A stretch of 64,000 bases of DNA, from the NCBI RefSeq assembly GCF_045037415.1, contig NZ_CP173438.1; one strand, written 5' to 3'. The notes below the pieces were generated by a model. The model worked only from the letters and a program-made list of their open reading frames with translations. It was not told where the DNA came from and did not search any database. Source of the DNA: Escherichia coli (GTDB taxonomy: Bacteria > Pseudomonadota > Gammaproteobacteria > Enterobacterales > Enterobacteriaceae). Numbering within the stretch: the first letter of the stretch is position 1; every line of letters starts with the position of its first letter. Both the position numbers and the translations under genes were made by a program. Positions 38,920-44,137 of the stretch are shown piece by piece.

Positions 38920-40293
38920 TTACTGGTTTTCAGCCAGCTGACGATCGTGGCGGCGCTTAAACATCCAGCCAATCAACAGCACAACAATCCACGCGAAACC
39001 AACATACAGCGAGATACGCGTATCAGGGTGATAACCAATCAACCCGATAATAAAGAGCAGGAAAATCAAACCGCCGATGGTCGTTGCTACCCCACCCGGC
39101 ACTTTAAATTTCAGCGCCTTAACTTCTTCTGGCGGCAAACGGCGACGGAAGGCGATTTGCGACAGCAGGATCATAATCCACACCCACACCGTGGCGAAGG
39201 TTGCCAGCGAAGCGATCACCAGGAAGACGTTTTCCGGCATGATGTAGTTCAGATACACCGCAAACAGCAGCGCGGTAGTCATCACCAGCACCGTAACCCA
39301 CGGAATACCGCGACGCGAGGTTTTGCTGAAAATTTTTGGCGCGCTGCCCTGCTCTGCCATACCGTGGAGCATACGGCCTACACCAAATACGTCACTGTTA
39401 ATTGCCGACAGCGAAGCGGTCAGCACAACAAAGTTAAGAATGCTGGCGGCAAAGGTAATGCCCATATGCTGGAACGTCAGCACAAACGGGCTACCGGCAG
39501 TGCCAACCTGATTCCACGGGTAGATAGACATAATGACGAACAGCGTACCGACGTAGAACACCAGAATACGCATCGGCACGGAGTTAATCGCACGCGGAAT
39601 CGATTTCTCAGGATCTTTCGCTTCACCGGCGGTAATCCCGATAATTTCGATCCCACCGTAAGCAAACATCACCATTTGCAACGACATCACCATACCAAGC
39701 CAGCCGTTACTGAAGAAGCCGCCGTTGCTCCACAGGTTATGAATACCGGTCGGTTGCCCGCCGTTGCCAATCCCCCAGATGATGATGCCGAAACCGGCGA
39801 CAATCATGATGATGATAGTGGCGACTTTAAAGAACGAGAACCAGAACTCCAGCTCACCGAATACCTTCACGCTCATCAGGTTTACGGCGCAAATGATCAG
39901 CACCACACTCAGTACCCAAATCCAGTGCGGCACCGTCGGGAACCAGACACCCATATAGATACCAAAAGCGGTCACATCGGCGATGGCGACAATAAGGATT
40001 TCAAAGCAGTAGGTCCAGCCGGTAATGTAACCTGCCAGCGGGCCGAGGTTTTCCTGCGCATAACGCGAGAAAGAGCTGGCTGCCGGGTTATGTACCGACA
40101 TTTCCCCCAGCGCACGCATAATGATATACGCCGCGATACCACCGATAATATAGGCCAACAACACGCTTGGACCGGCCATTTTGATGGCATCTGCCGAACC
40201 GTAAAACAGCCCGGTGCCAATTGCTGAACCCAGTGCCATAAAGCGTATGTGTCGGGTACTTAGCCCACGCTTTAGCTTGTTCTTACTTTCCAT
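38920..40293 (-). CDS. proY: Proline-specific permease ProY (APC family)
   Basis: ORF 38920..40296 trimmed to first ATG (457 aa) [33 protein letters not shown]. Confidence 0.9.
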
Positions 40294-40313
40294 CAATTCC
40301 TAACCCATCAACA

Positions 40314-40368: not shown

Positions 40369-41688
40369 TTAGTGAGCGCTGGAGGTCACCTGACGACCTG
40401 CCGCGCGATCCCAGATAATGGCCAGAACCACCATCACCACTGTTGGCATTAACCACGCCAGACCTTGTTCGGCCAGCGGTAAACGCTGCGCCCAGGACGG
40501 TAAGATATCGCTGAATGCAGATGCCTTGATCCCGTCGAGAATACCAAAAAGCAGGCTGATAAACATCGGCGGAGCAATCACGCGGGACGAATTATGCCAC
40601 CATGAGCGTGTAAAACTTAATACAACCAGTGCGATACACGGCGGATAAATGGCGGTCAGCACCGGTACAGAGATCTGAATCAGCTGGCTCAAGCCGAGGT
40701 TAGACACCACCATCGAGAAGCCGCCGAGGATAAACACCAGCGTACGATAAGAGAGCGGTACGTACTGGGCGAAGAATTCTGCACAAGCACAGGTCAGGCC
40801 AACCGCCGTGACCAGGCAGGCGATGAAGATTAACGCCGCCAGCAGGAAGCTACCGCCGCCGCCAAAGGTATGCTGAACGTAAGCATGCAGGATCGCCGCA
40901 CCGTTTGCAGACTGATCGACCAGCGACGCGCTGTCTGAACCCAGACGGAACAGCGCCAGGTACAGCAGAGTCAGACCAACACCCGCCATCAGGCCAGCCC
41001 AGACGGTATAACGGGTCAGCAGACGCGCTTCGGTAACGCCACGAGAACGCGCCGCGTTAACAATAACGATACCAAACACCATTGCGCCCAGCGTATCCAT
41101 GGTCAGATAGCCGTTGACGAAGCCGTTAGAAAACGCAGCGTTTTGATAAGCCTCAGTCGCCGTGCTGATAGAACCCGCCGGCCAGATAATTGCGGCAACA
41201 GACAGGATGACCAGCGCGATAATTTTCAGCGGCGCAAGGAAGTTGCCCACGGTATCCAGCAGCTTGCCCGGATAGAGCGAAACCAGAATAACGATAGCGA
41301 AATAGACCAGGCTGTAAATAAACAGCGGCAGCGCGGAATCACCCGTCAGCGGCGCAATGCCCACTTCAAAAGAAACGGTAGCTGTACGCGGCGTAGCGAA
41401 AAGCGGCCCCACCGCCAGGTAACAAACTGTTGCCAGCAGTACGCCAGCGACTTTACCAATTGGCGTGCTGAGACTGTCAACACCGCCGCCAACTTTTGCC
41501 AGCGCCACTACCGTTAATACCGGTAGGCCAACGGCAGTAATGAGGAAGCCGAATGCCGCAGTCCAGACGTGTTCGCCTGCCTGCAAGCCGACCATTGGAG
41601 GGAAAATAATGTTACCTGCGCCGACGAACAACGCAAATGTCATAAAGCCCAGAGCGATGATATCGCGCGATCTTAATTGATGGGTCAT
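40369..41688 (-). CDS. brnQ: Branched-chain amino acid transport system II carrier BrnQ
   Basis: 439 aa polytopic membrane protein [31 protein letters not shown]. Confidence 0.9.
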
Positions 41689-42039
41689 AAATCATACTGC
41701 CTGTGGATGTGGTGTTGTAACGTTAAATTTTTGTGCCAATCCCTGGGGATGATACAGCGGTATATTTAAACAATTTTAGCGGGAAATACTCCCAACCAGG
41801 CGCGGCGAAGAATAGTTTTTCGATTTACCGCGTAAATGCAGTCAGTATGACAGCACCTGAAGCGCAATTTAAACGCTTATAACGTTTTAAAGCAAGAAGG
41901 GATCTAAAAACCAGAGGTATATAGCGATAAGAAATCACCAACCAGTATAAAACACTATTTCAATGAAAAAGACATGGCTAATCATGCGAACAAAAAATCA
42001 CCAACCATTGTAAAATCTAACGCCCGTATTTCGACTGCA

Positions 42040-42068
42040 AAGAAAATAAGCCAGCATCGGCTGGCTTA
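42040..42068 (-). terminator. Terminator of phoBR
   Basis: AAGCCAGC-CGAU-GCUGGCUU hairpin followed by AUUUUCUUUG, ~30 nt past the phoR stop. Confidence 0.7.
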
Positions 42069-42094
42069 TGGCAATAAAAGATGACAAAGGCGAA

Positions 42095-43390
42095 TTAATC
42101 GCTGTTTTTGGCAATTAAACGTTCCGGGATAATAAAACTGAAACGTGTACCTTTTCCTACTGTACTCTCAATATTCAGGCGACTTTCGTGATGATTCACC
42201 GCATGTTTCACGATCGCTAACCCTAATCCGCTACCACCGGTTTGCCGGGAACGCGCTTTATCAACGCGATAAAAACGCTCGGTCAGGCGCGGAATATGCT
42301 CCGGTGCAATGCCCGGTCCGTTATCTTCAACACTAAATTCGGCACCGTGCGGCACTCGCTGCCAGCGTACGGTGATATGCGTGCCTTCCGGCGTATGATT
42401 CACGGCGTTATAGACCAGGTTCGAAATCGCACTACGTAGCTGATCTTCGTTGCCTGACACCTTGAGGCCGTTATCTATCTCAAAGGTAAATGTCTGTTTT
42501 TTCTGACTCAGAGTCTGAGCCTCGCGCTCAACGACGCGCAGCATCATCGGCACATCAACCTTTTCATTGAGCAAATGCGTCGGTGCGGCTTCTATTTTCG
42601 ACAGCGTCAGCAATTGCTTCACCAACCCTTCCATCCGCTGGGTCTGCTCACGCATGGTGTGCAACGCTTTTTCACGTACCGCGCCTTCCAGCGGTTGCTC
42701 ATCCATCATCTCCAGGTAACCCTGTAACACGGTCAATGGCGTACGTAACTCATGGCTCACGTTGGCAAAAAAGTTACGCCGCGCCCCTTCCAGTTGATGC
42801 ATTTGCGTGACATCTCGCGCCACCATCAGCAACTGTTTGTGGGTATAAGGCATGACGCGAATCTCCAGATGCCGCCCGGTATTGAGCACCAGATTGAGCG
42901 GGCGAGAGAAATCACGCGTTTTCAGATATTGCGTAAACTCCGGGTAACGCAGCAAGTTAAGGATGTTCTGCCCGTTATCTTCCGGCCAGCGCAAGCCAAG
43001 AATCTGTTGCGCCAGACCGTTGCACCAGAAAATACCGCCCTCTTCCGTGGTCAGCACCACCGCGTCGGGCAGCGACTCCGCGCCGCTACGAAAGCGTTTA
43101 ATCAGATTGCCCAGTTCACGGCGGCGTTTTTTATTTCGCAGCTGCATCTGGTGTAAGCCGTATAGTAGCGGTTCCCAGCTACCACGCCCCGGTGGCGGGG
43201 TCATACTACGATCCACCCACAGCCACCATGAAAGGCGCAATAAATTCCAGAAATGCCAGATAAGCAGTCCTGTTACCGATGCCAGCAAAAACCAGGGCAG
43301 GTAACCCAAAAATGCACCCAGGATGAAAGCCGGGAGGCAGCAAAATAGCAGCTCCAGCACCAGCCTTTTCCACGACAGCCGTTCCAGCAC
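42095..43390 (-). CDS. phoR: Phosphate regulon sensor histidine kinase PhoR
   Basis: 431 aa; H-box [14 protein letters not shown]; ATPase G-boxes [30 protein letters not shown]; ORF-track start is a non-ATG codon. Confidence 0.95.
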
Positions 43391-43447: not shown

Positions 43448-44137
43448 TTAAAAGCGGGTTGAAAAACGATACCCTGTACCGCGCACGGTCTGCACCATGC
43501 GGTCATGCCCGCCGGGCTCCAGTGCTTTACGCAGGCGACGAATGTGGACATCGACCGTACGATCTTCCACATACACGTTGGTTCCCCATACGTGATTTAA
43601 CAGTTGCTCGCGACTGTACACGCGCTCGGGATGCGTCATAAAAAAGTGCAGCAGTTTAAATTCAGTTGGCCCCATCTCCAGCGGTTCTTCGCCCGCCATC
43701 ACCCGGTGAGATGTCGGATCGAGACTTAGCCCCTGCATCTCAATCACCTCTTCCACCGCCATCGGCGATATACGGCGCATTACCGCTTTAATTCGCGCCA
43801 CCAGCTCCTTCGGAGAAAACGGCTTGGTGATATAGTCATCCGCACCGGTTTCAAGGCCGCGCACGCGATCTTCTTCTTCCCCTCTGGCGGTCAACATCAC
43901 CACTGGAATATCCCGGGTCATCGACTCGCGCTTGAGGTGTTTGATGAACTGGATACCGGAGCCGCCAGGTAACATCCAGTCAAGGAGAATTAAATCCGGC
44001 CAGGGTTCATTCAGTTGATTCACAGCACTGTCATAATCTTCCGCTTCGACCGGCTGAAAGCCATTTTGTTCGAGCACGAAGCAGACCATTTCGCGAATTG
44101 GAGCTTCATCTTCTACGACCAGAATACGTCTCGCCAT
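43448..44137 (-). CDS. phoB: Phosphate regulon response regulator PhoB
   Basis: 229 aa [27 protein letters not shown]; receiver Asp in [13 protein letters not shown]; OmpR-type winged helix. Confidence 0.95.

Follow-up and report, generated by a model that had tools for sequence, protein, structure and literature searches.

The 406-bp spacer that separates phoR from brnQ in Escherichia coli is, with a probability that we put at about 0.8, the region that controls the brnQ(-proY) transcription unit. It holds the phoBR terminator, the brnQ promoters P1 and P2 and the CA-rich tract predicted to be the GcvB target, together with elements that would provide protein control of P1 and with a candidate stem-loop in the leader of the mRNA. 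Most of this region is known and it is an ordinary bacterial control region, since the start sites and the link with GcvB are already published. What is new here is the strict spacing of the conserved blocks, the dyad in the P1 spacer and the candidate stem-loop, none of which we found described in the literature searched; all three are elements of familiar kinds and not a new kind of system.

The window, that is the whole 64,000-nucleotide stretch of E. coli DNA that was analysed (contig NZ_CP173438.1), carries the spacer at positions 41689 to 42094, exactly between two genes of the minus strand (Table 1). Its G+C content is 0.394, compared with about 0.52-0.58 in the flanking genes. The longest open reading frame touching it has 49 codons, a GTG start and a plus-strand orientation, all others having at most 38 codons, and the RefSeq annotation of the K-12 MG1655 counterpart (NC_000913.3 419185-419590) contains zero features. 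The 406-bp AT-rich non-coding gap of the original prediction is thus confirmed to the base. The 601 bases around the spacer are found with 98-100% identity in 5424 of 5426 complete E. coli genomes, and in the matching genomes they always lie between phoR and brnQ. For a wider comparison, 80 loci of other Enterobacteriaceae species were fetched via the BrnQ protein; phoR lies upstream of brnQ in 78 of them, and the spacer measures 397-426 bp in 69 of these 78. A MAFFT alignment of 73 spacers revealed four strongly conserved blocks (0.79-0.87 identity to E. coli) with neutral-like segments between them: the variable segments show 0.48-0.56 identity to E. coli, compared with 0.49-0.54 at the four-fold degenerate sites of phoR and brnQ taken as the neutral reference. 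In atypical loci with longer spacers, the insertions are confined to the variable segments. Taken together, the phoR-brnQ synteny, the conserved length and the conserved blocks show that the spacer is more than a chance gap.

Table 1. Features of the phoR-brnQ region, in window coordinates.
Feature	Position	Strand	Basis or remark
proY	38920-40296	-	window gene call
brnQ	40369-41688	-	window gene call; ATG at 41688
Last 31 nt before brnQ ATG		-	conserved block; identity 0.87
CA-rich tract, CAACACCACATCCACAGGCAG	41697-41717	-	-29 to -9 from ATG; near-100% conserved
Variable-part leader hairpin	41733-41755	-	position recurs, sequence differs between genera; weak
P2 secondary promoter	41765-41778	-	Cappable-seq start; -10 TAAAAT (41778-41773)
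Small hairpin GGGAG-UAU-UUCCC	41781-41793	-	3' end of conserved leader module; weak
5' leader part (leader module)	41845-41780	-	conserved block; identity 0.79
Candidate leader stem-loop	41800-41833	-	+26 to +59; encloses conserved UAAAUCGAAAAACUAUUCUUCG
brnQ 5' leader, 170 nt	41689-41858	-	mapped start to ATG
P1 main start (A)	41858	-	published maps; 170 nt upstream of brnQ ATG
P1 core sigma-70 promoter	41866-41895	-	mapped start and conservation
17-bp dyad in P1 spacer	41871-41887	-	reads AAACGTTATAAGCGTTT in E. coli
Promoter block	41923-41859	-	conserved block; identity 0.84
Promoter-upstream segment (TATA..TCTGGTTTTTAGATCCC)	41898-41923	-	-65 to -41; near-invariant columns
Block A (TTTTTTGTTCGCATGATTAGCCATGTCTTTTTC)	41966-41997	-	-139 to -108 from P1; identity 0.86 vs about 0.5 neutral
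phoBR intrinsic terminator	42036-42069	-	terminator scan and inverted repeat
phoR	42095-43390	-	window gene call
phoB	43448-44137	-	window gene call

Three local variations of the spacer were also recorded. In Escherichia sp. MOD1-EC7003 (locus L004, 1388-2124), about 735 bp of extra DNA lie directly after the phoR terminator; the insert consists of six tandem copies of a REP/BIME-like unit of about 114 bp, a spurious 232-codon ORF reads through it, and every conserved brnQ control block downstream of it is intact. In Winslowiella and Pantoea (Erwiniaceae; loci L083 and L084, 1090-1500), the gene upstream of brnQ is not phoR but one encoding a Meth_synt_2 (metE-like) protein. The spacer there still measures about 400 bp; the P1 core, dyad included, and a CA-rich tract before the ATG are retained, while block A and the leader module are missing. 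Lastly, the window contains a 24-nt direct repeat (41929-41952 and 41992-42015, sense TTTTAyAnTGGTTGGTGATTTyTT), whose copies are 88% identical and 63 bp apart. K-12 shows two further base differences in the upstream copy, and in Kluyvera the homologous positions resemble each other with a different sequence, as if they were co-changing.

At its phoR end the spacer carries the phoBR terminator, made of a 10-bp GC-rich stem (ATAAGCCAGC/GCTGGCTTAT) with a 4-nt loop followed by a T-run (TTTTCTTT). The hairpin occupies positions 42069-42046, begins 26 nt past the phoR stop codon and is followed by the T-run to about 42036. Judged by eye from the alignment, the stem persists across genera, with changes in both arms, and the phoBR transcript ends at this hairpin-plus-U terminator (42069-42036). 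The gap that had been noted between the phoR terminator and the brnQ start therefore exists, but not over 406 bp, as the terminator lies inside the spacer and about 350 bp remain.

The position of the brnQ promoter is given by two published start-site maps. For E. coli, Kim et al. 2012 (PMC3415461, Table S1) report a single brnQ start, supported by 54 reads at 418645 of NC_000913.2, and give the leader as 170 nt long; the 50 upstream bases that they print end with ...GTTTAAATTGCGCTTCA. In Klebsiella pneumoniae, the start that they list for brnQ falls in this promoter as well (...GTTTAAATTGCGCCTG) and leaves a leader of 179 nt. The Cappable-seq entries for this region (PMC4782308) give the same E. 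coli base, 418645, with a score of 15.3, as well as a second start at 418738 (score 12.3) that is absent from the list of Kim et al. 2012 (PMC3415461) and thus comes from one data set only. Between phoB and 418645 these entries contain zero sense-strand starts. Because K-12 and the window align without gaps at the start sites, the two starts correspond to A 41858 (P1) and A 41765 (P2), and the main start at 41858 therefore defines a 170-nt leader. P1 has a -35 sequence TTGCTT (41895-41890, 3/6), an 18-bp spacer and a -10 sequence TAAATT (41871-41866, 4/6) directly followed by a GC-rich GCGC discriminator; the spacer length falls within the 16-18 bp of sigma-70 promoters and, in the published maps, transcription starts 7 nt downstream of the -10, within the 5-9 nt expected for sigma-70. 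The P1 core sequence is invariant across about 80 species. It was missed by a simple promoter scan whose threshold was set at 9/12 hexamer matches. For P2, whose start lies 77 nt upstream of the brnQ ATG, no recognisable -35 is present in the sequence, and its -10 is not conserved outside Escherichia, other genera having TGAAAT or TGGAAT. According to these maps, most brnQ transcription begins at A 41858, driven by a weak sigma-70 promoter, and 41765 serves as a minor start.

The brnQ promoter and long 5' leader that had been proposed for this region hold, given that the published main start precedes the ATG by 170 nt; neither map shows a start just before the ATG, even P2 being 77 nt away. 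As a description of the whole spacer, the leader accounts for 42% of the 406 bp, the remainder being the phoBR terminator and conserved promoter-upstream DNA. Two observations concern the beginning of the brnQ coding sequence itself. Three weak sense starts appear among the Cappable-seq entries within its first 90 nt, at window positions 41684, 41650 and 41602 (418819, 418853 and 418901 in K-12), and a simple scan detected, on the minus strand and about 50 nt inside the coding sequence, a terminator-like hairpin with a T-rich tail (41614-41638).

We then considered the conserved DNA upstream of and within P1. Block A and the promoter core lie exactly 117 bp apart in each of the 66 loci in which the two anchors were located, even though the 42 bp between block A and the promoter show neutral identity, and the promoter core is separated from the leader module by 58 bp in 63 of 66 loci. 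The outer distances vary: 89-109 bp from the phoR stop codon to block A (64/66 loci) and 105-126 bp from the leader module to the CA tract (65/66 loci). Some 230 bp free of indels, part of them neutral sequence, point to a fixed protein-DNA geometry. Block A coincides with no sense-strand start among the Cappable-seq entries and is presumed to be protein-binding DNA. The promoter-upstream segment, which contains a T-tract at -51 to -47 and a conserved GATC, may be an UP-like element or a factor site. The dyad of the P1 spacer reads AAACGC-TATAA-GCGTTT in most genera, a perfect 6+5+6 palindrome. It is unique within the 64-kb window, with 0 occurrences expected by chance, and remains recognisable in the most distant loci, even those of Winslowiella and Pantoea with their different upstream gene, which makes it a candidate operator. 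Given the nearly invariant dyad, the conserved -65 to -41 segment and block A at its fixed 117 bp, P1 would be controlled by one or several DNA-binding proteins, and the fixed spacing of block A would imply either a helically phased arrangement or a complex that is wrapped or looped.

Which protein might be involved was approached by comparison with known promoters and by consensus scans. Lrp controls the branched-chain amino-acid promoters ilvIH, livJ and livKHMGF. Like them, brnQ has several conserved upstream blocks at fixed spacing, the pattern expected for a wrapped Lrp complex, and a review passage cites brnQ-proY, second-hand, among the Lrp-affected GcvB targets. Unlike in these promoters, the conserved blocks of brnQ do not match the Lrp consensus: a scan with YAGHAWATTWTDCTR gave 3 matches compared with 1.3 expected, none of them in a conserved block, and the best one (13/15, 41957-41943) lies within a variable segment. 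Lrp site prediction, named as a check in the original prediction, found none at conserved positions. Growth-rate-controlled promoters of the rrnB P1 type combine a GC-rich discriminator, an upstream T/A tract and distal Fis sites. The brnQ P1 promoter bears a resemblance, and only a resemblance, to this type through its GCGC discriminator, its T-tract and a Fis-like match centred near -137, and differs from it by its 18-bp spacer and weak hexamers. The Fis-like match (GGTGATTTTTTGTTC, 42002-41988) overlaps the left edge of block A, and from so degenerate a motif we can only infer that it might be a Fis site. Lrp is a published candidate regulator of P1, and we regard both the Lrp-like and the Fis-like matches as weak leads. 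Consensus scans for CRP, IHF, ArgR, TyrR, PhoB, Nac, NtrC and GcvA gave matches at or below chance, and in the literature searched we found no account of brnQ transcriptional control.

A sigma-54 promoter (TGGCAC-N5-TTGCW) was also considered and rejected. The sequence TGGCAC-N5-TTTAA at 41738-41723 has a perfect -24 element and lacks the GC of the -12, other genera do not keep this -24 element, and none of the reported start sites of the spacer lies downstream of it. A published in vitro SELEX peak for the RpoN holoenzyme falls in the phoR/brnQ spacer near the brnQ start.

At the other end of the leader, the evidence concerns post-transcriptional control. GcvB is an Hfq-dependent small RNA that uses a G/U-rich R1 seed to repress amino-acid transporter mRNAs when amino acids are plentiful, and its R1 targets include dppA, oppA, gltI, livJ, livK, sstT and cycA. 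The CA tract that precedes the brnQ ATG is essentially invariant in every locus, the most distant included, and contains a weak Shine-Dalgarno-like AGG. Miyakoshi et al. 2021 place brnQ among the R1 targets of GcvB, with verification in Salmonella and conservation in E. coli. When duplexes were calculated along the leader with the K-12 GcvB sequence, the best one with R1 fell on the CA tract (leader positions 121-165) at -23 kcal/mol, compared with -18.9 ± 2.9 kcal/mol for composition-matched shuffled leaders, a value close enough that the duplex calculation alone is not decisive. As in dppA, oppA and the other R1 sites, the brnQ tract is C/A-rich, G-poor, predicted to pair with R1 and located directly upstream of a weak Shine-Dalgarno sequence; unlike them, it is preceded by a 140-nt leader with a conserved module of its own, and its direct validation comes from Salmonella only. 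The CA tract is the predicted GcvB R1 target and translational enhancer, and GcvB/Hfq-dependent repression is predicted for E. coli: in the final 30 nt before the ATG, the tract coincides with the binding region published for the R1 seed. The suggestion that the leader might hold a small RNA target site is thus supported by the presence of brnQ on the published R1 list and by the invariant tract at -29 to -9.

The leader module encloses a candidate stem-loop whose outer helix is CGCGG/CCGCG in the window, with a possible inner helix CGAA/UUCG. Across distant loci the arms that flank the near-invariant UAAAUCGAAAAACUAUUCUUCG change together. They read CGCGG/CCGCG in Escherichia and Citrobacter, GCGUGG/CCACGC in most genera and UUAACC/GGUUAA in Mangrovibacter, whereas three individual loci have CACGCGA/UCGCGUG (L057), UCGCGCGC/GUGCGUGA (L045) and UGUGG/CCACA (L087). 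Individual folds of 71 distinct homologues gave a mean z of -1.59. Among these 71, 18 folds were inspected, and in most of them the enclosing helix was the structure of minimum energy. In a register-free test, the arms of the same species paired at -9.17 kcal/mol compared with -7.46 ± 0.23 kcal/mol for arms swapped between species (0/2000 permutations). Fixed-column pair counts were made on three alignments, including one to which a covariance model had been fitted. There, 76.5% of the cells were paired, compared with 74.3 ± 0.4 in shuffles and 41-61% with a slid partner, and 52 cells showed double changes compared with 25.5 ± 4; the pair and type counts, which are least affected by sequence relatedness, were not significant (69/500 and 92/500). 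The fixed-column counts are therefore only suggestive for these helices. Moreover, G-U pairs are no commoner than A-C, so that the arm test cannot separate a sense RNA from an antisense RNA or from a DNA inverted repeat. Altogether, we consider the chances that the leader module forms a real RNA stem-loop to be about even.

Other structures were looked for in the leader. The small hairpin at the 3' end of the module has about 75% of its cells paired, with a G-C to A-U switch in 10 sequences, and the hairpin of the variable part gave a mean z of -0.76 in per-species folds, 8 of 45 being below -1.5. RNAalifold with default settings predicted zero consensus pairs in 45 leaders and their sub-regions; with ribosum scoring both strands scored alike, meaning that palindromes and conserved columns are detected and not a strand-specific structure. 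The stability of the whole E. coli leader is unremarkable (z -0.72). Partners of the module in the rest of the leader or in the first 400 nt of brnQ were inconsistent between species, and GcvB regions outside R1 paired with it no better than shuffles did. A 12-nt inverted repeat (41839-41850 and 41692-41703), 11/12 complementary, could pair leader positions +9 to +20 with the last 12 nt before the ATG in P1 transcripts, those from P2 being too short; only in Escherichia is it strong, and we estimate that chance would yield about 0.25 such repeats. This contact between the leader 5' end and the ribosome-binding site was rejected for want of conservation (mean z -0.3) and of the co-changes that it would predict. 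Also rejected was an ATTTAC-GCG-GTAAAT hairpin that shows no covariation and is broken in K-12. A scan of positions 41200-42600 against Rfam 15, on both strands and with E values up to 10, found nothing in the leader or the upstream blocks. The sole match inside the spacer is a sub-threshold tmRNA fragment (42066-42117; 8.6 bits compared with a gathering score of 47, E 0.65) that covers the phoBR terminator and the 3' end of phoR.

In the reading that we prefer, the 5' module of the leader would fold as a stem-loop displaying its conserved A-rich interior, and this stem-loop may dock Hfq or another RNA-binding factor and so assist GcvB control about 100 nt downstream. In the rpoS leader, upstream A-rich elements, (AAN)4 and A6, recruit Hfq for the action of small RNAs further downstream. 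The brnQ leader similarly presents a conserved A-rich CGAAAAAC in a folded 5' region about 100 nt upstream of the small RNA site; unlike in rpoS, its A-run is short, and the comparison is an analogy and not a membership, Hfq docking being putative here. By this analogy, the A-rich interior would suit an Hfq docking element if the stem-loop is real.

Two other roles of the module have to be weighed against that of a GcvB helper. The module (+14 to +79) could be a new structured cis-regulatory RNA and itself the main sensor, binding a metabolite such as a branched-chain amino acid or else a dedicated protein, in which case it would set brnQ expression by itself and not as a helper of GcvB. Co-varying arms around a 22-nt near-invariant interior would fit such a sensor, as would the lack of an Rfam family match and the fact that no brnQ-specific regulator was found in the literature searched. 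We nevertheless hold it to be unlikely, since no expression platform is apparent: there is no terminator after the module and no conserved pairing with the ribosome-binding site or another partner, the start codon is 110 nt away across a segment of variable length, the covariation is modest and not strand-specific, and the Erwiniaceae lack the module while keeping the promoter core. Alternatively, the module could act as DNA, either as a downstream operator at which a repressor of P1 binds or as an upstream activator region of P2, within one fixed protein-DNA assembly that includes block A and the dyad. This is a distinctly stronger contender, although the odds are still somewhat against it. 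It accounts for the indel-free path from block A through the module with its invariant 117-bp and 58-bp spacings, for the position of the module at -80 to -14 relative to P2, for the lack of G-U excess over A-C and for the absence of pairs in the default RNAalifold prediction. It fits less well with arms that co-change around a non-palindromic 22-bp centre, which would be unusual for a protein site, with the several lineages that restore the helix by a register shift, and with a P2 -10 that is not conserved outside Escherichia.

Classical explanations for a long leader or a long spacer fared worse. Leader-peptide attenuation operates in ilvGMEDA, ilvBN and leuABCD through ilvL, ivbL and leuL, and brnQ shares with these systems a long leader in front of a branched-chain amino-acid gene, so that a Leu/Ile/Val-rich uORF with alternative terminator and antiterminator hairpins was conceivable and had been raised in the original prediction. 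Unlike in ilvL, ivbL and leuL, neither a leader peptide nor a terminator/antiterminator pair is present: none of the leader ORFs shows a run of Leu/Ile/Val codons or a Shine-Dalgarno sequence, neither strand has an ORF whose position is conserved, the terminator scan found no terminator-like hairpin in 41858-41689, and the supplementary tables of a Term-seq study of 3' ends in eLife do not list a brnQ 3' end. Attenuation of brnQ is thus extremely unlikely. It is also very unlikely, if slightly less so, that the spacer hides an independent small RNA or small protein gene on either strand. One candidate is a plus-strand ORF of 36 codons (41974-42084) whose start and first 8 codons (MANHANKK) are conserved, a conservation that results from that of block A. 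This ORF diverges completely after codon 8, its length ranges from 12 to 36 codons, and its third codon positions show no less conservation than the first two; in addition, the spacer has no small RNA match in Rfam on either strand and no RefSeq annotation, and the sense-strand Cappable-seq entries show zero starts between phoR and P1.

BrnQ is the low-affinity, high-capacity importer of leucine, isoleucine and valine, and its deletion or overexpression is routine in strains built for amino-acid production. The constraint on its control region, the indel-free 230-bp architecture and a dyad that survives a change of the upstream gene offer precise and cheap targets for a regulator search. If nothing new binds there, the region stays a well-defined example of a promoter with a small RNA-controlled leader. 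A bolder proposal, which we consider improbable, is that the stem-loop (41833-41800) and the dyad are the recognition sites of a dedicated regulator of the LIV-II transporter, in its strongest form with the stem-loop as a branched-chain amino-acid-sensing RNA motif absent from Rfam. If this were true, the Enterobacteriaceae would possess a dedicated LIV-II regulator, and the stem-loop would sense branched-chain amino acids either directly or via a protein.
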